From NCBI GenBank assembly GCA_039621445.1, contig CP154954.1:21526954-21590953 (forward strand): DNA of 64,000 bases, read 5' to 3'. This DNA is from Euglena gracilis (taxonomy: Eukaryota). The number at the start of each line of letters is the position of its first letter. The stretch's first letter is position 1. This document shows, one piece after another, positions 12,201 through 64,000 of this stretch. The translations under genes and the position numbers were made by a program. The notes under the pieces are model-generated. The model was not told where the DNA came from. It saw only the letters and a list, made by a program, of their open reading frames with translations, and made no database searches.

Positions 12201-15200
12201 TCACTCCAACTGGCACTTCGCGTGCTGCTGGTGGCACTGAGGACAGAATTGCAATTGGGAATGGAAGACAGTCAGAGAGAAAAAATACAAACACACACAT
12301 CCACACACGCGCACACACACAGAGAGAGAGAAAGGGGGGGGACAAAAGATCTTAAAAAGATGAGGTGCCCCAGCAGGAAACCCCCAGCAGGAAACATGAC
12401 ATCTGACCATTTTGGTGGTCAATCCTGTAACCACCCTCCCAGGACCTGGTCCGGAGGATTATTTTGAGTGGGGAAAAAGCAAAAAAGCAAAAAATCACTT
12501 CAAAAACAACTTCAAAAACAACTTCAAAAAAGACTGCAAAGACACAAATACAAATAACCATTGAACACCCCGTGAAGATCTTTCACGTTCCTTTGGCCGA
12601 TTTGGACTCCGCAGAAGGGGGCAGTTTTGGACCGGGATCTTCACCGACAGACCCCCCAAAAATAGATGGCAGCCCCATACCACTGGACCCCCCCCCCGGG
12701 GGTCCCAGTGGTATGGCCTGGGGGGGGGGGCGGGGATTTTTTTTAAGACCGGGGGGGGGGGGCGGGGGTTCCCCTCACCCACCCCCCAAGGGGGGGGGGC
12801 CTGCATCCGGGACCCCAGCGGAACCCAGCCTCTCCGTGGCGCAGGGGAGAAACGGCCCCCCACTCCGCCCCAGGGGGTACGGCTAACTGAGTACCTCCTG
12901 GGATGAGGTGGACACCCCCCACCTGTCACTCTAGACACCCCACTCCAGCCCCAGCCCTCTGCAGGTCCACTCCCTCGGTCCGCTGCGGCCGTCGTCCTCT
13001 CGATGTTCTATCGGGCCGCCGTCCTCTCGATTTTCTCTTGGTCCCAGCCACCCACCCACCCACCACCCAACCCAGCCGGCAGCCCCAGCCCCACCCACAC
13101 CCAGCCCAGCCAGCGGCCCCGGCCCCGCCCCCTCCCAGCCCAGCCGGCAGCTCCCCCCCTCCAGGGTCCGGCTCACCCCCCCCCCCCCCCCACCCCCTGC
13201 GGGGGGCCGACCCACCCCCCCCCCCCCCTCCGGGGGTCCGACCCACACCCCCCCCCCCTCCGGGGGTCCGACCCACACCCCCCCCCTCCGGGGTGCAGGC
13301 TGCTAGAACCCAAGTTCTATGGATGTCGTCTTACACACCACGACCCCTCCCCACACGGACGGCTGCACATTGGATGCCCCCCCCCGGCCTGCACCACTGA
13401 CACCAACCGATCCCTCCCCCCGGCCTTTTGGTTGCTTTTCGGCATGCACAAACACACCCAAGACTCTCGTAGCAGGTGATAAGTGTTTCCGGAAGATCCA
13501 ACCCAATATCCCCGAGACGTCTCTCACCCCCCCCGCCCCGGCCCTTGGCCTGCCAACACGCCCCCTCCTCTGTTTTCTACGTCGTCCTCTCTCGGTCCAC
13601 CGCGGCCGTCGTCCTGTCGTTGTTCTCTTTCGGTCCACCGTGGCCGTCGTCCTGTCGTTGTTCTCTTTCGGTCCACCGCGGCCGTCGACCTGTCGTTGTT
13701 CTCTCTCGGTCCACCGCGGCCGTCGTCCTGTCGTTGTTCTCTTTCGGTCCACCGCGGCCGTCGACCTGTCGTTGTTCTCTCTCGGTCCACCGCGGCCGTC
13801 GACCTGTCGTTGTTCTCCCTCGGTCCACCGCGGCCGTCGTCCTCTCGATCTTCCTACCCGCCATCGACCCCGGAGCTGCTCTCGGCCCCCATCAGCCCTG
13901 TTGAGCCCCACACGATCTCCTGTGCCGGCCCATGCCATCATCCCGTCTTCTGTCCGCTCTCTGTCCTGCTCCTCAGCAGGCACGCCCTCATCCATCCATC
14001 ATATCATCCCGGCCTCTGCCCCCCAGCGGGCACGCCCTCATCCCTCCATCACATCCGGGCCCCGGGTAGGCCCCTTGGAGGCAGGGCCATAGAGGCCTTG
14101 TCGACCTTGGGCATTGCAGTGAAGTGGGGCGCTTCTAATCCTAATCCTAATCCCAAGGGGGGGGGGCTCGGCCGGACCCACCCACCCACCCTACCCCCCC
14201 CTCCCCCCCCCACGACTAAAACAACCCCTGGGCGGGGGTCCCACTTGTGTGGGGGGCTGCTAAATAGACTTCCTACCAAAATTGGAGTTTTTCAGCAACT
14301 GACCCAAAAAAATTGACCGGGTTCCAGGTGCATATTATTTGCACCTGGAAGTATGAAGTATGCAAGCACCTATGAAATGGCGTGACTGGGCGTGGCTGGG
14401 CATGACTGGCTTTAAAGAACCTCACAGGTGGGGTTCCGTGACTGGGCATGACTGGGCGTGACTGGCTCATTTTGGCCATATTTTTTTTGGCCATTTTTGC
14501 CCCGTTTGGCCCCTTTTGGCCACTTTCAAATATTTTGGGCCACTTTTGGCTGCTTTTGCTTGCCTTTGGCCATTTTAATCATTATTATTAATCTATTTTT
14601 GCCCACTTTCGATAGATTTTTTAGGCCACCTTTGGACCATTTTTGGCCACTTTTGACCACATTTTCCTATTTTGAAATTGAAAGCAGCAATAAGTGCCCA
14701 TGGCCAAAAGCAACAAAAAAAAGTGGCCAAAAGCAGCGAAAAGCAACAAAAAGTGGCTAAAAGCGGTCAAAAACAGCAAGAAGTGGCCTCAAAATGGCCA
14801 AAGAGCAACAGAAGCGGCCTACTGTGGGCAAAAGTGGCCAAAGGTGGGCAAAAATGGCCAGAGGTGGGCAAAAGTGGGCAACGAAAGCCAAAAGTGGCCC
14901 AAAAATGACCAAAAGTGACTAAACAGCAACTAAAAGCTGCCAAAAGTGACCAAAAACAGCCAGAAGATGGGCAAACGTGGCAAAAAGCCTGTCGTTTAAA
15001 GTTGGGGTGACTGGGGTTTCTAGTGGCATGCGTGGCAGGCGTGGGTGTGACTGGGTGTAACTGGGCATGACTGGGCCTGGGATTCTGGATGACCATAGGT
15101 GCTTGGTGATATGCACCTAAAATATTCTGTACACTGGAAAATGAGCAATAAAAATGCCTTTTCCCTCACTTTTGCATATTGCATATTTTTTTATATTAGG

Positions 15201-51801: not shown

Positions 51802-54800
51802 CATTGACTTAGAAATATTCAGTTCGGGAGCCGACTGTGGGTGAAGATACTTGCAAAAAATTGGTGTGGATGAAGATACAGGGAGAGATGTGCAATGGCA
51901 TGGGTGGACCATCTGGCTCCCAAGCTGGACGTAGTTGGAAACAAAATCCAAAAGTAGCCCAGATGTTGAGGGAATATATTTTCTTTGCAGTTCTCTCAAA
52001 TAATACACTAAAAAAGGCCATTTCCCATATTCCCCATTATTTTTCACCCAATTCTGCTGGACAATACCAGATTTAATTTTTCAGGTGAAATATGTCGGTT
52101 GTTTTCTATTGAAGGAATGACACCCCCCAAATTGGTAGGAGATTCAAAAATCTAAAATTTTTTTTTCAGGAGGGGTCAGTAATTTGAGACGACGACGTCC
52201 AGGGCAAAGTTTTGGTCGAAATGGAGGCCCTGATTTTTACCAACCTACCCCCCCCCCCCTGGCTCATTGACCTGTGGAACGTTGGTCTCAATAGGCGGGA
52301 GGACCAACTTGGGGGGGGGGCATGTTGACTCCAACAGCCAAGGGGGGCCAAGGAGCCGCCAAGCCAAAATGCCTCAAAAGGGGGGGTCCGTATCGACCCC
52401 AACAGGCCTGGGGACCAACTTTTGAAGGGGGCACGTTGGCCCCAAAAGCCGGGGGTGGGAAAGAGCTTGGGGGGGGGGCAATGAGCCCACAAAGTAATTC
52501 AAAGGCTTCTTAGTTCTTAGTTGGGGACGATGCTGCTGAAATTTTTTTCTTTATCTTTTCCCACCTCCTGCAGGATCATTATTTTCCAATTGGACTCAAA
52601 ATGTAAATGCAAATGATGTGTATTGCCTCATCCATGCCTCAGCAAAGCCAGGAAGCATTGCGTATTAGCCAACATCGCATTTTTCGAATGTTTTCAATTT
52701 CATGGTAACCCCCCGCCAAAATGCTTTTAGGTCTGTTACTGGAACACACCATCTGGTCTTTAGGAGCTCTTATTATTTGGATTTTCTCTTTACCCACCCT
52801 GGCATTTTGGCTTTCCAAATGAGTTCGTTGCAGTGTGCTATACAAAAATTGGTGTTATTTGAGGCTTGACGTGGCTTTGGGGGTCTCAAAAATTACACGC
52901 TATCAGAATTTTTTTATTTTGTGGATTCTTTTGGTGCCTGGCGCCGTAAGCTCCTTGAACCTTGTCTCCTCATTGAACGTTTTTTATTTCCTCATTTTTT
53001 CCTTGGCAAGTAAATGAATTATTTCTGAGGTGTGTTGCCACATGGGCATTTGCAATTGCAAGGAACCCAAAGATGAGCTTGTGTTCGACCCTGCTCTGGT
53101 TACCACTGATGACCAGCGGCAAAAGCTCTGTAAAAAGGTGGCCCAAGTTGTGACCGGAAAAGATCAGCAAACGTTCTATTTTCCCTGATGAGTTTTGTGT
53201 TGTTTTATTCCAGCTTGGGTGACACTGACACAAATATGCACAAACACACACGGAAAAAGCACACTAATATATCATCCCTTCCCCCCGTAACGCTATTTTG
53301 GCAATTTATTTTGTTTCTTTCCCCAGAAGCATACCTTTTCCACCGTGGTGCGATTTGACAACTGCTTATTATTGTATGGCGTGCAAATTTACGTTCGCCG
53401 GAGAGGTCTCATTACTTTGAACCTTCGTTTCTTCTCCCCTTGGTATTTCCTGCCGTTTTTGAAAATGAGAATATGATTTTGCTGGGGAGGGCCAAAAAAT
53501 TCACCGTCTAAATAACAGCATGAAAATAAATGCCATTTTCTTGAAACACAGCAATGTGGTACAAAATGTGTGCCTCCATTGATCCAACCGTCTGTTTCCA
53601 TCCCTGATCCGAGGTGTTTGGATTGGGGTCAGCAGCAAAATTAAATCGAATTTATTGATCAAAGGTTATTGTTACAGTCACAATCAAGGCAAAATTATAT
53701 GAAGTGAAAAGCTACAAAGTTTATATGGGTAAACAAATAATGTTTTGGGAGAATATTACTTTTCTTTTTGGATTAAATCTTTTCAGACCACACTGCAACC
53801 AAAAAACCTCCATCCATGTGGTTAGGATGAGCAAACTTCTCAAAACGTGTAATGTGCACATATGATGTGTGGTGATTGGTTTTGTCACCACTTATTGACA
53901 GTATCCCCTTTATGTTTGGTCCGACCCTGGGTCAGGCCCAATTCCGAGGACCTCCATAGGAGAGGGGGGGGGTCAGCCTGCAGCCTTTTTCCAGCCAGCC
54001 CAAATTTTCCACCCTCTGAGCTGGACTCCCCCCTGGGGGGTCAGTAAGGTGCCCCCTGATCCGTGTGTATGTACCCTGTCGTGTGTGTGTGTGTGGACCG
54101 GGTTGTCGGGGGGGGGGGGCAGGCGGCCTTCGGTATGAGAGGCCTAGGCAAACGTACGTAACCTCCTCACCTTTTTTCAAAACCTTATCAATGAAAGTTG
54201 TTGACAGCGGTTGAACAAGCAAATCACAGCATGCAAATCTGGCAATGCTTAACCTTTCCCACAGACGTTCCATTGCAGAACAGAACCCCAGGTGAGAGGT
54301 GTCCGGCCTCACTCCCAGTGGTTTATCACCCAGCCAGCAGCATCCGGCCGGGCTGTACGGAAGGTCTGGTGGGGTGGGGTCGACCCCCCCCACCCAGGAG
54401 GTGGGGGGGGGAGCGACCTCCCCCTGTTTCATGGACAAGGGATTCATCTAGAAGTCCTCCTAAAAAGTCCGCCAAGGGTCCAGCTTGCTGCCGGCGTCCC
54501 ACCACCCCTCCCACATTTCCGAGGGTGGCGATTTTCAGGTCAAAATTTTTCCTTGGCAGTGCTCATTGTGTTGGGATTTTATGAATCCCAACACAAACCC
54601 AATACATATCCCAACACATATCCCACCACAAATCCCAACATGCAATCCTAACACAAACACCGAATTGTGGTAGGTGCAATATTTTTTTGTCTTTTTTTTT
54701 GTCTTTGGGAGGGGTTCGTTTTGTCTTTTGTTAGTATTTGTTTCCAAATTGCGCCTCGGCCTTTTCATCTGGTTCTTTTGCTGTCAGTTGAGTATTTCTT

Positions 54801-54839
54801 TTTTATTCCATTTTTATTTGAGAATAAACGGATGCTGAA

Positions 54840-57800
54840 ATGGACGAGAAAGGAAGGGATTTTGTCAATGAATACACTGTGATCAAGCACTTGGGATCTG
54901 GAACATATGGCACAGTAAATCTGTGTGAGCATTATCAAAACAGGCAATTTCTATCAAGCACTCATGGGACGGGAAACAAATTGCTGTCTCCACCTCTGTA
55001 AGCCCTTGTTCTTCAAAGGCTGAACACCAGTATTTCACACGAGCATTTGCAATTTGAAATTTTGCTATTTTTTTGTCAACTGGAGAAAGTTTTCCCTAAG
55101 TTAGACCCAGGCTTATTAGTTACCTCCCAAAAAGTCTGTCAAGATTGCCTGCCTCTGACGCAGGAACAGTATGCGGTGAAGGTCATCCCTCGTGCAAAGG
55201 TGAAGAAAGCAAATGTGGCGGAAGCTGAGATTTTGAAGAAGCTGAACTGAGGCCTCATCCTGTGCCAACTCTCTGTAAGTTTGTGCGAGATGATCAGTGT
55301 TTTTGCCAGTTTCTTTCCAGTATGTTCCAGAAATCTATGAGGCAGTGGTCTCCATGCAACATCCGAACGTCATTCAGATGTATGAGTTGATGGATGACGC
55401 CGGGCAAGAGTTCATTTACCTTTTGCAGGCTTCTTCTCCACAGCGATATGTGGCATGAGAAAGGTTTTTTTTAGGGTTGGTCTGCCAGGCTACCACAAAC
55501 TCAGACAAAAAAGGGGGGACAGAGGCGGAAAACAGCGCCAGACCAGAAGAGAACAAACAGCCGCAGTGCATGCATGGGCGGATTTGCACGTGTGCCAGAA
55601 TGAAGCTAAAGCCTGATTTCGTGCTAGAGTTTGTGGCAGACGGTGCCATTATGTCCCTCGATGGAGATGGCCAAGCAAAGACACCCACCCTAGAAGAAGT
55701 TACTTGTGCAAAGTGCATGAAGCAGGTCACAGAAGGGCTTGCCTACCTGCACAGTATGAACATCATCCACCGCGATATTAAGCCAGACAACTTGCTCATA
55801 GACAGAAAGAAAGACGTTGTCAAGCTCTGTGCTCAGGGTTCTTCCTGATCGTACAAAGGGTTTTTCTGAGAAAAAATCATTTTGAAAGAGATGTGGAAAG
55901 CCCCGAAGTGTGGAGCAGTGGAGCAATTAACACAAAAAAATGATTTTTTTCGGCAGAGGTATTTTGTTCACAAGGCTTTTGTGGCAAGCTGTATTTCATT
56001 TTCGCCTCCAGAACAGAAGATTGTTTTTGATTTGATTTGATTTCGCCGTGCATTTATTTTGAGGCAGAGGGCTGATTGCTTCATTTTCATCATAGGAAGC
56101 ATTCCTTGCACCCCAACCATTATTCCCAACAAGAACGGGAAGACGCCCTGTGCTTCGATTTCGGCGTCGGCATGCTGTTTGAGAACGAGAACGACACAGT
56201 GCGCAAAACGGAGGGCACCCCGTTTTTCCTGGCTCCCAGCCAGGGCTGCACCGCAGACCCCCACAGGCGCCATGCGGGTCTCCTCCCTCCCCTGGCCCCC
56301 TCGCGCATCAGGTTTGCCCGTCCAGCCGTGGCCCCGAGGCCTGCCGGGGGCAGTACTACTCCGGGAAGTCCTCCGATATCTGGCAACTCGGTATCACGCT
56401 GTTCGCGTTGATTTTTGGCCCTCCAGGGAGCTTAATTGTGGCTGGGGCTCGTGGTTTGGAAGTATTAGATTTCAAAATGATGTTGATGGACCCCACCTGC
56501 GAGGGGGGGGGGCGATAAAACCACTGATTATCCCCCACTTTCTTTTAATTATGGGTGGGTCAATTGTGGGTCTGGCTGACTGTTTCCATGATAGATTTAT
56601 CCTCTGGGGGAGGCTATGTGTGGGTTGCTGGGGAATTATGACAGCGTGCAAGGGAATGGTAAGGCTGGCAAATATGGTTAAATTCTCTGGTCCATTTCTG
56701 AGGATGACTGGAATAAGCCCTCAGGAGCAAGTTTCTTGAGGCTCCCGGGTTGTATTACTCAAGGTCTCTGCTTCTGTGTGCCATTCTTAGCTGCAAATCA
56801 GGTCGCCCTCTTCAACGACATCCAGCAAAAGCCTCTTTCTGGGCAAGGGGCAACTTATGCCACTCCGGAGATGCAGATCTTCTCCTCTTCCCCTTTTTTT
56901 CAGATCGGCGACACACAGACACCAACAGCAGCCGATTTCAATCAACACACATTGCTTACGGCGTGGATGGGTGGATGGAGAGCGATGGGTTGCAGTGAAG
57001 CAACCAGAAACCCCTCAGTCGACCCCTCCAATTGATTCTGGGAGCCACTACCTCCCCCCCCTAATAAGTGCACGGGTGCGCGCATTTTAAGGACGTAGTT
57101 TCAGACCCCAAGGGGTGCGCATTTATTAGGGCACTGCGCACTTATTAGGGCAAATCCCAAAATACAAAGTTTCCCCCACACTTTTTCATTTCAATTTTCT
57201 CCCCATTTTGTGATGTCAGGAATTAAGAGAGATCATGTGTCAAATCTGTGTTTGGATGATAGAAATATTTCGTCTGAGAAGGACAGTTCTGAGAAATGTG
57301 TGTGCTTTTCCGACCTGAGATGTGACAGTGATTTCTATTTTGGGGGGATGCACACTTTTTAGGGAGGTAGTTTCGGACCCTTGGGGGGTGCACATTTATT
57401 AGGGCACTGCGCATAATTAGGGCACTGCGCACTTATTAGGGGCGGGTTTACAATCAAGCAAGAGGGGTCCAAATGAAAGCTGGAGGCAGCAGAAACCGGC
57501 AGTGCAATGTCAAATAGTGCCATGCTTTTGCCCCGCAGGTAGCAGTTCGCCACCTGCGCTTTGATGGAGAGCTTAGGAAGCTGCATTTTCATTTTTTCCG
57601 CTTTGTTTGGCAATTTGCCAATACCACACCAGACCACACTATACCATACTACCTGACCTCGTCTTTCTTTACCTTACCTGACCTGATTTTACTACAACGT
57701 ACCATACCATACCATACCATACTGTACGTACCATACCATACCATATCATACCATACCATACCATACCATACCATACCATACCATACCATACCATACCATA

Positions 57801-60800
57801 CCATACCATACCATACCATACCGTACCGTACCGTACCGTACCATACCATACCATACCATACCATACCATACCATACCATACCATACCATACCATACCATA
57901 CCATACCATACCATACCATACCATACCATACCATACCATTTTTTTTAGTCAGTTTTAGGGTGGTTTGCGGCCGAAGAAAATCGTCCCCGGCGGCTTTCAT
58001 TTTTCTTCCCCTGGGGGGGTTATAAGTCCCGGTTTGGTTGGTCGTCCCGAGGGGGGGTTAGTAAGTGGGGGGGGTTATAAGTGGGGGGTTATAAGTGGGG
58101 GGGTTATGGTATGGTATGGTATGGTATGGTACGATATGGTATAGTATGGTATGGTATGGTATGAGAGGGGGGGTTTACCATACTATACCATACCATACCA
58201 TACCATACCATACCATACCATACCATACCATACCATACCATATCGTACTTTATGGCAGAGAACTTCATGTCCGCCTCCCGGAGCCAACGCTGCCCAGTGG
58301 CAGCATCCCAAAGGGGGCCAGTGCCAACCTGAGCCACCTGCTGCAGCGCATGCTGGAGAAGGACGCCCTCATCCGCATCTCCCTCAATGAGATCAAGGAC
58401 CGCCCAGGCCCCTTCCAGCATGGCTCATGGGCGAGGTGAGGACGCACTGTTTTTTTGTCACCCTGTGTGGCTTTTGTCCGTCTGACCTATCTGACGTTCC
58501 AATTGTTGACCTCTTCCGTCCCGGCAGAGTGACAGCCCCAGCCAAGAGCCCGTTTCTTTCCAGCCCCTTCCCTTCGATGAGCTCTGACTTCCTATTTGGC
58601 GCTTCGATTGTCACAGGGGTTAGGACTGAGGTTTCTGAATTTCTGGTCACAGGCCAAAGTGGCCCTCAGTTTCTAAAGCGCCACCATGAAGGAAAGAGAC
58701 AGTTTTGGTACCTTTTTTTTATACCCACCGCAAGATGAAATCAAGTTCTTTTGTTTCCCCTGTGCTTCACCCCCTGATAAATGACCCGAAAACCCTGGTC
58801 TTGCCCCCCCCCCTGCATGGCAACTGCAACCACTTTCAGTGAATTTCAACTGTAACAAGGCCCAGTGAACTTCGAAAAGATTGCATTTGCATTATTTGCC
58901 CAAACCCCCAAGCCAGTTTATTTGTTAGCTCCACGAGATCGGCCGCCCAAGTCAAAAATTTATGGGCCAACCCAGGGCATTCTTCAAGGGACGGGGCAAA
59001 TATTTTGTTTTAAAATTTAAAGGACCGCCCTTGGGCCAAATGCTGTCCACCTGCCGGTCTGGGGATTGAACAGGGTCGAAAACAAAAAAAAACATAAAGC
59101 CTTAAAATGCCTTTTCTGATATATTCAGTGGATGGGCGATGGACCAAGGATGCTAGAAATCAATTTTCCCCCAATGCCGACCTGTTTTCGCCGAAAAATG
59201 TCAAAATTTTCACCACTTTTTTGCAAGGATTTTTTTTTTGTTGAATGTGCTGGAACAGCAGAAAACAAGCACCTTAAACTTGAAGGTAGCCCGGGCCAAG
59301 CCCCAAAATTTTTGTTTCAAAAACGAGCTTTTGTTAATTGTGGCCAAACTCAACTTTCCCCAGTCTGGTCGAACCCAGGTCGGGTTCCAGCCAGTGCACT
59401 ATGTCTCATGGGGGAGGAGAGGACGGTCAGCAGAGCCATCCCAACCAGCCCAAATTTTCTGACCTCAAGGCTACTGGGGGGAGACTCTGGTGCATATTTG
59501 GCAGGGACAATTGAGAGTCATTTTCTCAAAAAAAACATGTAATACTGAACTGGAATTAGGTTTTTGCTCCGGAGATTGAAGGCGACCGCTCACACCCCTG
59601 GGTCACGGGGGAGAACAGCCCCGTGCCGAACTCCATGCGCCTGGTGGCCGCCGCCTCCGCGGAGAGTCTGACGTACTCTGAGCCGCCCGTCGCCGGCTTC
59701 TTCTTGCTCCTCGTCCCTGTAGCGCATGGGGATGGCATCAAGCCAGGAACAGGATGAAATGAAGATTTCTGAGGCACATCCTCCTTGGAAATGGGCAGCT
59801 TGGGAGCAAAGGGTGAGGAGATTGTTTTATTTGGCAATGCTGATCCATTTTACACCAACTCCTGATGGCTGATGGGGCAAAGAAATCAATGCAAATACAC
59901 ACCCTTCCCCCAAGTGATACGCCCCCAGTTTATAATCTGGGCAGCCAATATAAGGCAAGGGGGGTGTTTTGGGGGTTTTTCAAAATCAAAAATTGATTCC
60001 TCCTGACCCCCTTTTTTGTATTTCGGGCTTTTTGCCCATTTGATGATTTTTTTTGAAGAAAATTTTCTGACCCTTGCAAATTTTTGCAATTTTTGGGGGG
60101 TCTTTTCTCCCTTTTCTTTCACTGCAGTGCTGAGGGAGGGGTGTTATCATTTGGTCAGCCGAAGTCTGTCCGTGTCGGCAAACCGTCCCTGTGAAGTGTC
60201 CCTGTAACCAAAGTGTCCCTGTGAAATGTCCCTGTGAGGAAAGCGTCCCTGTAAAGTGTCCACGTAACCAAACTGCAGCCATGATGCTTCTTTTTGTTTG
60301 CTCAAAACAGTCCCCAGCCAAGACGTTTGGCCAAACGGACCTTACTCAGCTTCCCTCGCTTGTTTCTGTGTTCCATTGTTCCTCGCCATTGTTCCTCGGC
60401 ACCGAAATCATTTTTTTTCTGTGAGGATCCCAGTGCAACTGAGCGGCAGAGAAGGAGCCATGCCTCAGGCCCACACGGTCCCCCACAGAAGTGGTCAGCT
60501 ATCGGAGCCAAGCCGCTGCGCTGCCCTCGGGAATTCCCTCGGAGAAGCCCGTTTTGTTCAATGCGTGCATGCATCCACCTGCCACCTGTCCACACGTCAC
60601 GCCTCCAGCGCGGCTGGCAGTTCCTGAGGTTTGGGCCCTTCCCCCCCCCCCCATTTCTGACCACCATCAGGTTGGTCGGCTCAGGCTTGTGCCAGAGCCG
60701 AGGCTGGCGACCCATCCCTGTTGCTGTTCAGGCGTCAGCCCATCCAGTGCACACCCGTGCCAGGGGCTTGCCAGCATCCTGATCGTGGAGGACGTGTTCC

Positions 60801-63800
60801 TTCAACGGAGCATTTGCCGCAAAATCATGGAGTCCATCGTTGAGGGACAGCTCACCGTCCAAGGCTGACCCCTCACCCTCTGACCCTGGATCGGTGTCCG
60901 GTGGGCTGCTTGTTTGTTCGGTCAGCCCCGCGTACAAATTGAAGAAGTTGAAGGAATCTTTCACAATTTTGGGTCTCTGCATCATCTCTCTCTTGCATTC
61001 CCCATTACTGCCTCCGTTTTGGAGCCATTCGCATTACACGTGATTGTTCAATGGACTTCAATCCATTTCTTGATTCATGCACACTTTCGCTGATTCTCAC
61101 TCAGAAAGTTTTCTCAGTTGGGGGGGGGGGGTGTTCAGGTCATGAAGAAACTTGAATAGACCGAAGCAGAATGTTACTCAATATCCTGAGTTATGTTACT
61201 GAATATCCTGATAACACCTGCCCACAGAGTTATCAAGAGTGGGTGGGTGGTTCGGGGCTGCCGGACCCCCTCTGGGTGGGGCAATCACGCACACAACCAC
61301 ACACACACACACAGGAGGAGCATAAACCCTCCCCCCAAATAATTCCCCCCAAATAATACCCCCCCCCCCCCCCCAAATACCTCCCCCCCACGGGGTCCGA
61401 CTGCGGCGACCGAGTTAATCCCCCCCCAACCCCAATCTCGCGCCGACGACCCGGATTTGACCTGAAAATGTTGGTAAAAATCCCAATCTCTGACAACAAA
61501 TTGCGGAAAAAAAATCGGGTTTTCTGGATCATCTGTCCTCCAAAAATGCCAAATTTCACGAGAAGGTTCAAAACATGACCCCAAAGGGGGGTTTTTGGTG
61601 CTATTTTGGGTCTTACAGGACTTCGAAAAATTTCGAAAAATTTGGGATGCTATCACTCCCCCCCCCCAAACAATACCCCCCCCCCCCTCGGGCCGGGACT
61701 TCGGCTGAAAAAAATAACACCCCGGGGGGTATTGTTTGGGGGGGGGGGTTTAGCTTATTTTACACACCGAATTTTGTGGAGGGTACCCAACCCCCCCACC
61801 TATGGGCTGTGGTGGTGGTGTGTGCGGAACCTTCTCGGAGCTCCTCAGGTGTCCAATTTTGTACACAGGCCACAATTTTGTACACGCTACATGGCGTGGC
61901 ACTCACATGAACAACAAGAATCAACATGCACACATAAAATTTGAGAGACAACAGGATTCATGTTGTGAATGAAAGGGATCGACTTTTTTTGGGTGGGTGC
62001 GTGGCGGGTACTTGAAAAGAGTCAGTGGGTTGTGTCCAGGATATGGTGCCCAACCCCCTGGAGGCCACTAAGTGGATGACACCTATTTGTGGTGGAAGTC
62101 CAGATCACTCCTTTGGCAAAGCCTGCAAATGCAAAGCCTTGGCAATGTGTCTCGGTGGCAGGATTTGGTGGAATTTTTCTCGTATGTGGTACCGCAGTCC
62201 AAATTCCGCAAGTCCTTTTCGGAGGATAAAAAAAAGTTTTAAAAAAACTGCCAATTATGCAAAAGATCGAACTTTTTTTTTTAGTCCTAAATTTGAGCTG
62301 GCCGGCCCCTTTTCTGACCCATTTTGGCCTATTTTTGCCCCTCGAAAGCCAAAAATGCGTTACCGTCTTGCGGCTGCGAAATAATAAATGAAACTGGTCG
62401 ATGGGCCACTTTGCTATTCTGGGAGACGTCGCCCAGAACAAAACCCCCCGAATGGTTTTTCTGGGCAACCTTGAGTCCCCGTTGCTTTTCTGCGGAGCAA
62501 TGCCCTGTCCCCCCCCCCTCTAACGTTGACCCACGGCGCCTCGGACCCATGAGACCCAAGGCTCCCAGCCCCCTCGACCCTCTGATTCAAGGGAGCCTTG
62601 CACCCATCGACGAGGCGGCTGATGGTGGAGCGGCGGTTGCCTTCTGCCGGACCCACTTCTACCACCTCATCCTGATGGACATCCACCTGCCCAGGGCAGC
62701 CCCCCCCCCCCGGTGGTGCTGGAACACCTGGACCCCCTGTCCCCCCCACAGGCAAAGCCGCCAAGGTTCGCTTCACGTCGTGTGCCATGGCATTGGTTAA
62801 GGTGTGCCCGACTGGGTGTTTGGAGTGATGGATTGGTCCTTGGCTGCAGACCCTCTCCCCCTGGGGATAGGGTCGGGTTATTGGTCCATCTGGCGCCTTT
62901 GACGCCAGAAGGTTTTGGCAAATTTGACCAAAGTCCGTTACTTTTGAGCCATTTTATCCGTTGATTTTGATCCATTTTAGTCCCAGTGGCCAGAGTGACC
63001 GACGAGGGTCGGGCCGGAAGTGAGTCCCCCCTCCCTGGGGGGACTTCACAAGCAATGGTACGGCTGTGCCCCCCCCCCCCCAACGTCCCGACCCAACGGC
63101 CCTGCCAACGCCGGGGCTCAACGGCTTCGAGGCCACCGTCCACATCCGCACGCTGCAGCGGGAGCGCGGCGACGGCCTCGTGAGCCTCATCGTGGGGCTG
63201 ACTGGCAGCCAGGCCCCACCGTCGCCCCCGCCGAGGGTTCGACTGGGAGAGGGCGGGGGAATGGCCTCGCACCTGGGGGGGGGGGGGGGGGGGCTACTAA
63301 TGGTGCTGCCTGAACTGAGAACCGAGAATCAGAAACAGTTCCAGACTTCTGTCAATGAGAGGAATACTCCCACCTCCGCGCTGGCTGACCTCTCCGAATA
63401 CGATCTCCCACCCCCTCGCGGATGGCTGGTTGGCCGGCACCGAAGGAATCAGGCGCGAATTGCCCAATTTTTTTCTTTCCAATTTCTCTGTTTGGGGTTT
63501 CGGGGTTTCCACTTACGGCACCCTACCCGTTTGGGTTGGGAATGGGTCTGTTTTAGACAAAACAGCAAAATGCCGATTTTGTAAATTTATGGCGCTTTTA
63601 GGGGGGGGGGCTGGAAACCCCCCCCAGAATGCCCTGGAAAGTTGAAACACACAAAACCGGCAGAGCACACCTGGCCTCTGGAGAAGAAGGGTCCTGCGGG
63701 AGACACCCACGAGAGCGTGCCGAGTGTGGGGCACAGTAGCGGGATGAACGAGGTGCTGTGGAAGCCCGCCACCCCGGCGTCCATGCGCCAGCTCTGCGTC

Positions 63801-63905
63801 AAGTATGACATCCCGCGGAGGCGGGCCCCGGCTGCCGGGAATCTGTTGCCTCGGCAACCGTTGCTGGGGTGGGGGAGAACCAGGACTGAACAACGAATCT
63901 TTTGA
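54840..63905 (+). CDS. Gene B: CAMKK/GRIK-like Ser/Thr kinase with C-terminal receiver (REC) domain
   Basis: Exons ~54842-54937, 55157-55243, 55356-55422, 55621-55830, 56157-56237, 56336-56420, 56776-~56834, ~58269-58398, ~59591-59676, 60773-60856, 62606-62688, 63110-63206, 63702-(63815..63905). Motifs GSGTYG, AVK, HPNVI, HRDIKPDN, DFG, GTPFFLAPE, DIW, HPW; then ILIVED, LILMDIHLP, NGFEAT, GLTG, LWKP. True 5' and 3' ends uncertain. Confidence 0.9.
57700..58240. repeat. (CCATA)n pentanucleotide microsatellite with an inverted block
   Basis: (ccata)n 57700-57938, (tatgg)n 58105-58162, (ccata)n 58178-58240, all inside a kinase intron. Confidence 0.95.
60773..63815 (+). CDS. Receiver-domain exons of gene B
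   Basis: SILIVEDVFLQRSICRKIMESIVEGQLT|IDEAADGGAAVAFCRTHFYHLILMDIHL|PGLNGFEATVHIRTLQRERGDGLVSLIVGLTG|DTHESVPSVGHSSGMNEVLWKPATPASMRQLC. Confidence 0.88.
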
Positions 63906-64000
63906 ATCCCTTGAACCCCGAGGGCGGGTTGCCCCCCCCCCCCGCCAAATCTGGTGGGGAGTCCGACCACCCCCTCCCTCCACCACCCCTGAACTTTTTT

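Follow-up and report, generated by a model that had tools for sequence, protein, structure and literature searches.

A CaMKK-like kinase joined to a receiver domain in Euglena gracilis: gene structure, expression and euglenozoan relatives

CaMKK1 and CaMKK2 of animals, GRIK1 and GRIK2 of plants and Sak1, Tos3 and Elm1 of yeast act upstream of AMPK, SnRK1 and SNF1. In the CaMKKs an autoinhibitory and calmodulin-binding segment lies directly after the kinase domain, and an Arg/Pro-rich (RP) insert between subdomains II and III is a hallmark of the animal enzymes. Eukaryotes usually join His-Asp signalling to Ser/Thr kinase cascades via separate proteins, as from Sln1 through Ypd1 and Ssk1 to a MAPK module. 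Kinase and receiver (REC) are found in one chain in Rim15 of fungi, a Ser/Thr kinase of the Greatwall/AGC type with a C-terminal receiver, and in SypE of Vibrio fischeri, whose kinase belongs to the anti-sigma kinases of the RsbW/GHKL type and has a STAS protein as its partner. SypE is described, in the excerpted text of PMC3610818, as a response regulator in which REC lies between an N-terminal Ser kinase and a PP2C-type phosphatase at the C-terminus. Here a window of 64,000 nucleotides (nt) from Euglena gracilis (assembly GCA_039621445.1, contig CP154954.1, positions 21,526,954 to 21,590,953 of the forward strand) was analysed, the + strand of which carries the 5' part of a nuclear gene encoding a CaMKK-like kinase joined to a receiver domain. 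All coordinates given below are those of the window, unless stated otherwise.

The gene was modelled using P0002, a protein of 1158 amino acids (aa) which was retrieved with the largest kinase exon as query and which carries the identifier EG_transcript_705, in the naming of the EukProt Euglena gracilis set. In a tblastn search of the window with P0002, exon matches were obtained at 15 places in collinear order, the first starting at 53042 and the last ending at about 63818, and the spliced model derived from them comprises 15 exons (53042-63816; Table 1) with a total of 1417 nt and 472 codons, encompassing codons 1-472 of the reading frame with 0 stops. Agreement with P0002 is 99.4%, the three residue changes being T151 in the window for I, M156 for T and H413 for Q. 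The joints between exons 1 and 8 were placed on the basis of protein homology, with the exception of 56840>58305, which was fixed by a loose end of the RNA reads. Before splicing, the stop-to-stop open reading frames (ORFs) of the + strand displayed recognisable kinase and receiver fragments in a region that is eukaryotic and intron-rich; of eight such raw fragments compared with Pfam, three matched Pkinase (best 55459-55848, 64.5 bits) and one matched Response_reg at 16 bits, under the cut-off of 30.2.

RNA data labelled with the same species were mapped on positions 58245-64000 using raw RNA-seq runs from two studies (X21 and X24) and two contig sets (X15 and X18) that were presumed to be RNA, the start at 58245 being chosen so that the (TACCA)n arrays in intron 8 were avoided. 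Each of the six joints between kinase exon 9 and receiver exon 15 was spanned by raw reads (Table 1), and all six were also present in a single X15 contig of 3695 nt and in a single X18 contig of 2885 nt, the latter matching the window without a mismatch. Beyond the mapped block, the X15 contig runs on for 879 nt on the upstream side and for 2209 nt on the downstream side, a length sufficient for all 1158 codons of the reading frame. The letters preceding 58305 in reads and contigs are those of window 56811-56840, the end of exon 8, while the letters following 63816 encode P0002 residues 471-480 and have no match in 63817-64000, indicating that the mRNA continues past the window. The gene is thus real and expressed, with kinase and REC on one transcript. 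An original prediction made from the window's letters had proposed in-frame splicing from kinase subdomain XI into a receiver, and this is borne out by the six joints, the two RNA contigs and the 472 codons free of stops; its own counter-scenario, kinase and receiver exons on separate transcripts, is contradicted by reads and contigs from exon 9 to exon 15. The limits of 54840-63905 that it gave for the feature need revision, as the gene starts at 53042 with exon 1 and its last exon within the window ends at 63816.

A second variant was observed in the RNA reads at 10 exonic positions between 58329 and 63764 (exons 9-15), for example 60475 A>G, 60493 G>C and 60784 C>T. These three variants are carried by the X15 contig, and the X18 contig is identical to the window; the transcripts stem from a minimum of two alleles or very close paralogues. 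Two further RNA differences in the list, 61378 and 61382, lie within intron 12. Poly-C/poly-G tracts located in introns (61340-61390 and 63270-63295) draw many RNA reads with joints of the opposite strand, connecting 60652, 61359, 61374 and 61676 with 63275 or 63294, the joint 61374-63294 having 38 X21 reads. These joints were read as probable low-complexity mapping or library artefacts and set aside.

The kinase is, as judged from residues, profile searches and phylogeny, a CaMKK/GRIK-type Ser/Thr kinase with an intact catalytic apparatus. The catalytic residues K80, E94, D175, N180 and D194 are encoded by window codons and are invariant in 23/23 family members (Lys80 at ≥90%). When the single sequence was used to search the PDB, the best scores were obtained for CaMKK2 (160 bits), CaMKK1 (156), CDPK1 (153), BRSK2 (147), AMPK (139) and LKB1 (130), and when a profile of the 23-member family was used, for CaMKK2 (341 bits), CaMKK1 (320), LKB1 (235), CIPK23 (225) and AMPK (about 211). 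The best 60 PDB matches, with either query, were CaMKK, LKB1, CIPK, AMPK, MARK, CDPK and similar kinases, and included no AGC kinase.

Two trees were calculated. In a FastTree phylogeny of 201 kinase-domain rows, all kinase-REC rows fell in a clade of 41 rows, which is nested in a clade of 122 rows (local support 99) together with standalone CaMKK/GRIK-like proteins. A second tree of 53 kinase domains, from 50 proteins chosen from 335, was inferred using IQ-TREE under LG+C20+F+G4 by PMSF, with 1000 ultrafast bootstraps and SH-aLRT. A clade of 36 rows, supported at 100/98, encompassed 22 kinase-REC rows, 7 kinase-PP2C rows and 7 standalone rows from Acrasis (named CaMKK), Naegleria, Capsella, Cryptomeria (named GRIK2), Rhynocoris, Coemansia and Cymbomonas, and all 17 other rows (CDPK-named, DCLK3, ATG1a, oomycete CaMK, NEK12, fhkE-related, two bacterial kinases and others) were placed outside it. 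Within it, 21 kinase-REC rows and the kinase-PP2C protein P0097 formed a kinase-REC clade at 96/96. The prediction of a CAMKK-like kinase, distinct from the AGC-type Rim15, is supported by the margin of the profile search (341 bits for CaMKK2 against 235 for LKB1), by the 100/98 clade and by the make-up of the 60 PDB matches.

The receiver is, by its sequence and its predicted structure, complete and ordinary, with a (beta-alpha)5 fold and the full phospho-acceptor chemistry. The acidic pair E352-D353, the phospho-acceptor D399, T433 and K455-P456 were read from window codons, so that the residues originally pointed out (the ED pair, the Asp of LMD, the Thr of GLTG and the KP) are all real. 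To count their conservation, 30 family receivers scoring >40 bits were aligned, 8 weaker matches having been dropped beforehand. The acceptor Asp and the Thr/Ser were kept in 30/30, the acidic pair in 29/30 (one Glu-Glu) and the Lys in 29/30, the exception being truncated. The nearest solved receivers are those of hybrid histidine kinases and of yeast SLN1 (E-values of 1e-9 to 5e-8). In an AlphaFold2 (AF2) model, strands 345-351, 372-378, 395-399, 428-433 and 451-454 alternate with five helices at a predicted local distance difference test score (pLDDT) of about 83-94.

Domain boundaries of the whole product were taken from Pfam matches on P0002: Pkinase (PF00069) at residues 51-306 with 206.7 bits, Response_reg (PF00072) at residues 348-464 with 53.7 bits (cut-off 30.2; profile positions 1-108 of 111) and PP2C at residues 797-992 with 127.2 bits (cut-off 20.3; profile positions 30-228 of 255). 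The product of 1158 aa is thus organised as an N-terminus of the form MG-x-C-x-C, kinase, linker, REC, spacer and PP2C-fold domain (about 797-1150), of which residues 1-472 (N-terminus, kinase, linker and REC) are encoded within the window, and the spacer and PP2C beyond it. The kinase-REC architecture first proposed stands as far as its two domains are concerned, while exon 1, a micro-exon of 13 residues and the C-terminal PP2C beyond the window had been overlooked. The linker, put at about 25 aa originally, measures 41 residues between the Pfam ends 306 and 348, the micro-exon (60466-60505, 40 nt) included. In the AF2 model, which was built from a 23-sequence alignment and the inter-domain contacts of which were left out of the conclusions, the kinase has a pLDDT of about 90. 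No conservation is seen in the family consensus along the 41 residues that follow the kinase, and their pLDDT is low (<50 for residues 323-342); no calmodulin-binding predictor was applied to them. The REC-PP2C spacer, about 320 residues long in P0002, is probably disordered, as modelled with low pLDDT at 514-798. Across the family it ranges from 234 to 493 residues, is unconserved and is rich in polar residues. A phmmer search with the P0002 spacer recovered only the two orthologues described below, and an ESM Atlas search with residues 471-790 yielded no usable match. At the other end of the chain, MG and a Cys within the first 7 residues were found in 13 of 14 full-length kinase-REC-PP2C proteins, the fourteenth starting with MMG; this Gly/Cys motif is probably a site of myristoylation and palmitoylation and would serve as a membrane tether.

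The PP2C-like domain was modelled with a pLDDT of about 70-90, with a disordered insert at 1031-1110, and its best PDB matches are Arabidopsis PP2Cs (E-value 1e-18). The acidic residues of RxxMED, DGHG, DGxWD and the terminal DN are PP2C metal ligands. Compared with the Arabidopsis structures, SDGLWD is changed to AAGLWS in P0002 and the GD of RxxGD to GV. The Asp of DGxWD is kept in 27/30 aligned PP2C domains, the three exceptions being exactly P0002 and its orthologues P0003 and P0004, in which RxxMED is also absent, GD is replaced by GV or GA and the terminal DN by EN, while DGHG and GDSR are retained. The changed residues are identical across the three orthologues, which looks more like a maintained pseudophosphatase than like random decay; the PP2C of this orthogroup has lost several of its metal-binding residues. 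Canonical PP2C motifs are found in the E. gracilis paralogues EG_transcript_142 and EG_transcript_1518 and in the diplonemid and Papus members of the family.

The fusion is real and, a point that its first description missed, it is a conserved trait of a euglenozoan family. P0003, whose source transcriptome bears the prefix GGOE (taken here to be Euglena longa), is 85% identical to P0002, and P0004, a JGI record, about 62-63% (63% in an alignment of the three). A HMMER search with P0002 was carried out over 1.84 billion representatives and the best 150 matches were listed. Among 212 proteins collected, 16 were kinase-REC-PP2C, 21 kinase-REC and 14 kinase-PP2C proteins with no REC detected. Organisms were looked up for 20 of the 37 REC-bearing proteins; 16 of the 20 carried an organism label (4 did not), and all 16 are Euglenozoa: Euglena gracilis (2), Entosiphon (1), Sulcionema (4), Namystynia (4), Lacrimia (1), Papus (1) and an organism with the prefix Hpha (3), presumably Hemistasia, whose records bear the automatic source label K07359/CAMKK2. 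P0013, with the prefix RCo (which we assume to denote Rhabdomonas), is a further member. On this sequence evidence the kinase-REC core defines a family of euglenids, diplonemids and one prokinetoplastid. Its proteins are 28-37% identical overall, apart from the two close orthologues, and single species hold several copies (no fewer than 3 members in E. gracilis and 4 in Sulcionema). The kinase-PP2C proteins with no detected REC (e.g. P0109, P0120, P0133 and P0136) have a canonical PP2C; of the seven in the 53-row tree, six are placed beside standalone CaMKK/GRIK-like kinases and P0097 inside the kinase-REC clade. P0104, a basal kinase-REC protein, was also used as query for homologues, and no further kinase-REC proteins came up. 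One E. gracilis paralogue, EG_transcript_142 (P0065, 1728 residues), consists of two tandem kinase-REC units followed by a single canonical PP2C.

Set against the described systems, the protein resembles CaMKK1/2, GRIK1/2 and Sak1/Tos3/Elm1 in its closest solved structures (CaMKK1/2), in sharing one clade with sequences named CaMKK or GRIK2 and in its intact catalytic residues, and differs from CaMKK1/CaMKK2 in having no RP insert, in the receiver and then the PP2C-fold domain that follow the kinase, and in its MG+Cys N-terminus. SypE, with its identical arrangement of the three activities around a central REC, is the best working model for the setting of kinase against phosphatase output by a receiver; however, the Euglena kinase is a Hanks-type (PF00069) relative of CaMKK, so that the kinase parts are analogous and not homologous, and the PP2C of the P0002 orthogroup looks inactive from its residues. 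Rim15, too, is a Ser/Thr kinase of eukaryotes that carries its receiver C-terminal to the catalytic domain, but the Euglena kinase falls in the CaMKK clade and Rim15 has no PP2C. Moreover, the acceptor Asp is kept in every receiver counted in the Euglena kinase-REC family, whereas it is replaced in Rim15 of Ascomycota, according to the excerpted text of PMC8510515. The 'kinatases' of TriTryp were considered as relatives and rejected, being DSP phosphatases with pseudokinase domains and unrelated. Among PMC CC-licensed papers and bioRxiv, no description was found of a CaMKK-type kinase-REC fusion or of a eukaryotic kinase-REC-PP2C protein, in keeping with the earlier impression that the architecture is uncharacterised. 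The component families and receivers with enzymatic output are known, and family sequences are already in public transcriptomes under automatic labels; new are the combination of CaMKK and REC, the position of REC in the CaMKK scaffold and the spread across Euglenozoa.

The favoured reading, held with moderate confidence, is that of a REC-switched CaMKK-type kinase with a non-catalytic PP2C, an acylated N-terminus and AMPK/SnRK1-like substrates. The REC would stand in place of the autoinhibitory and calmodulin-binding segment of CaMKKs, at the usual position of the calcium switch, which makes a regulatory input likely. A histidine kinase or a phosphorelay, by phosphorylating Asp399, would then alter the output of the kinase; in the P0002 orthogroup, the PP2C would have turned into a non-catalytic docking or regulatory module, and acylation of the N-terminal Gly and Cys would provide a membrane tether. 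If CaMKK, GRIK and Sak1 are taken as guides, the likeliest substrates would be the activation-loop Thr of AMPK/SnRK1-like or other CAMK-like kinases. In the paralogues with an intact PP2C, the REC would probably set the balance of kinase and phosphatase on a shared substrate, as in bacterial SypE. The original prediction spoke of a two-component-gated activator of AMPK-type signalling; in the light of the degenerate PP2C and the conserved family, the likely logic shifts from such a simple gated activator to a kinase/phosphatase switch of the SypE type. Both the gating by Asp phosphorylation and the AMPK-type target are inferred. A bolder form of the proposal is unlikely, namely that euglenozoan kinase-REC-PP2C proteins are phosphorelay-switched writers and erasers of AMPK/SnRK1-type activation loops, in which phosphorylated REC flips the output between CaMKK-type kinase and PP2C, and that this arrangement is ancestral to euglenids, diplonemids and kinetoplastids, with the P0002 orthogroup a derived, kinase-locked form whose pseudophosphatase acts as a substrate clamp.

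Several points weigh against the favoured reading. With the single sequence, the lead of CaMKK over CDPK in the PDB search is only about 7 bits, a clear margin needing the family profile, and AMPK and LKB1, which have no labelled rows in the trees, were compared through PDB searches only. The RP insert of animal CaMKKs has no counterpart, chain residues 43 to 68 of 5uy6_A (CaMKK2) being skipped in the alignment. Acylation is read from the N-terminal motif alone, and the statements on PP2C concern sequence beyond the window taken from transcript-derived proteins. With regard to a phosphodonor, the excerpted text of PMC4558063 gives HPt in 0 of 5 Euglenozoa surveyed, the four that it names being trypanosomatids; for E. 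gracilis itself, an expanded REC orthogroup with an H-ATPase domain is reported in the excerpted text of PMC6366073.

A receiver that acts independently of phosphorylation, as a dimerisation or scaffold module in a kinase controlled otherwise (by activation-loop phosphorylation or membrane recruitment), would accord with the same survey of five Euglenozoa and with the lack of an identified phosphodonor, for which no search of the genome was made; such a role is proposed for some Rim15 receivers, those of Ascomycota having the acceptor Asp replaced and a receiver role that is unstudied, as far as the excerpts of PMC8510515 go. It is nevertheless improbable, as the five positions of the phospho-chemistry are kept in 29-30 of 30 receivers over a deep divergence of 28-37% identity, a pattern expected of a working acceptor site and unlike that of Ascomycota Rim15. 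Somewhat less unlikely, though still doubtful, is a kinase that is CaMKK-like by descent only, the targets of which are unrelated to AMPK/SnRK1, such as membrane or flagellar proteins near the acylated N-terminus, even if REC gates the enzyme. In its favour, the kinase-REC clade (96/96) branches as a sister lineage of its own beside standalone CaMKK/GRIK-like kinases that are also present in Discoba (Acrasis and Naegleria), the copy numbers in E. gracilis and Sulcionema suggest diversified targets, and MG+Cys N-termini are found in 13 of 14 proteins. On the other hand, the repeated fusion of CaMKK-clade kinases to PP2C, with REC and without it (14 of the latter among the 212 proteins), fits a shared class of phospho-threonine substrates, and PP2Cs are known erasers of the activation-loop mark of AMPK/SnRK1. 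AMPK alpha is, moreover, reported in Euglenozoa in the excerpted part of a preprint (bioRxiv 10.64898/2026.09.26.754375). That the fusion itself is an artefact of annotation or assembly, with kinase and REC on separate transcripts or genes, has next to no probability: the weak Pfam match of the raw REC fragment and the non-canonical form of all splice sites could be taken to suggest it, but every joint from exon 9 to exon 15 is carried by raw reads from two studies and by two independent RNA contigs, and full-length transcripts of the same order occur in two further euglenid data sets and in many other Euglenozoa.

The interest of the gene lies in a receiver built into a CaMKK-type kinase at the usual position of the calcium switch, with an opposing PP2C attached in most relatives. 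If the receiver gates the enzyme, as favoured above, Euglenozoa would couple environmental sensing by histidine kinases directly to an energy- or stress-kinase cascade within one protein. The paralogues with an active-type PP2C, beside an orthogroup with a decayed one, offer a natural comparison for the evolution of such a switch, and Asp399 is a defined object for testing; knock-down methods exist in Euglena gracilis.

The introns of the gene were also examined. None of the 14 can be placed as GT..AG, and each has a border ambiguity of 0-5 nt because of short direct repeats. Pairing of positions +4 to +6 with -8 to -6 in strict register was found in 9/14 (6 CAG/CTG, 2 CAA/TTG and 1 GAG/CTC), the other 5 being without it, whereas random border pairs from the same DNA averaged 2.8 pairings and never exceeded 8 in 2000 trials. 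This pairing is a signature of euglenid nonconventional introns, according to the excerpted text of PMC4770533, and on their border sequences all 14 introns are assigned to that type. Of 271 sampled E. gracilis introns, 80% were conventional and 8.5% nonconventional (PMC6366073, excerpted text). A gene with nonconventional introns only may help the study of their excision, the mechanism of which is unknown. The micro-exon of 13 residues lies between nonconventional introns of 778 and 270 nt, and RNA reads and contigs agree on it.

Table 1. Exons, RNA-supported joints and repeat arrays of the kinase-REC gene in the window (REC, receiver domain; joints are given as last and first exonic positions).
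Feature	Position	Strand	Content or support
Exon 1	53042..53161	+	Start codon, residues 1-40 (MGICNCK.., Gly2, Cys4, Cys6); end ambiguous within 53160-53164
Exon 2	54843..54937	+	Kinase subdomain I (GSGTYG); Pfam kinase start at codon 51, about 54873
Exon 3	55157..55245	+	Subdomains II-III; Lys80 at 55179, Glu94 at 55221
Exon 4	55358..55422	+	Subdomain IV, HPNVIQMYELMDD..
Exon 5	55621..55829	+	Subdomains V-VIb, HRDIKPDN; Asp175 at 55774, Asn180 at 55789; 2 of the 3 residue differences from the transcript
Exon 6	56156..56237	+	DFG (Asp194 at 56157), activation loop to ..GTPFFLAP
Exon 7	56336..56420	+	Subdomains VIII-IX
Exon 8	56776..56840	+	Subdomain X; 3' end 56840 is the loose end of RNA reads before 58305
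Exon 9	58305..58400	+	Subdomain XI to ..LNEIKD
Exon 10	59593..59687	+	HPWVTG..; kinase domain end at codon 306, about 59604; then first part of linker
Exon 11	60466..60505	+	Micro-exon of 40 nt (RPTRSPTEVVSYR), second part of linker
Exon 12	60776..60854	+	REC beta1-alpha1; acidic pair Glu352-Asp353 (60788-60793)
Exon 13	62604..62688	+	REC beta2-beta3; phospho-acceptor Asp399 (62678-62680)
Exon 14	63110..63206	+	REC alpha3-beta4; Thr433 (63201-63203); third difference from the transcript, H413 vs Q
Exon 15	63702..63816	+	REC alpha4-beta5-alpha5; Lys455-Pro456 (63762-63767); Pfam REC end at codon 464, about 63791
Joint, ..EIKD exon to HPW.. exon	58400>59593		X21 9 reads, X24 0
Joint	59687>60466		X21 9 reads, X24 1
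Joint	60505>60776		X21 7 reads, X24 0
Joint	60854>62604		X21 7 reads, X24 2
Joint	62688>63110		X21 1 read, X24 2
Joint	63206>63702		X21 2 reads, X24 5
Intron 8 microsatellites	57700..58242	.	(TACCA)48, then (TATGG)12 and (TACCA)13; non-coding

Within the repeats of intron 8, the (TATGG)12 stretch is the complement of the TACCA array, and the same intron also holds repeats of 18-19 nt (unit TTATTAGGGCACTGCGCA) at 57116-57152 and 57396-57441. Upstream of the gene, 10 of the 31 ORFs of at least 170 aa in window 1-53000 were scanned and no Pfam family was found above cut-off, one sub-threshold match being attributed to chance, in line with reports that the coding density of the E. gracilis genome is very low. 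Proline-rich, low-complexity ORFs are located around 13000-13300. Directly before the gene, a polypyrimidine tract followed by AG occurs about 32 nt upstream of the start codon (52985-53041) and could be a spliced-leader acceptor, and an upstream ATG at 53015 opens an ORF of 4 codons.

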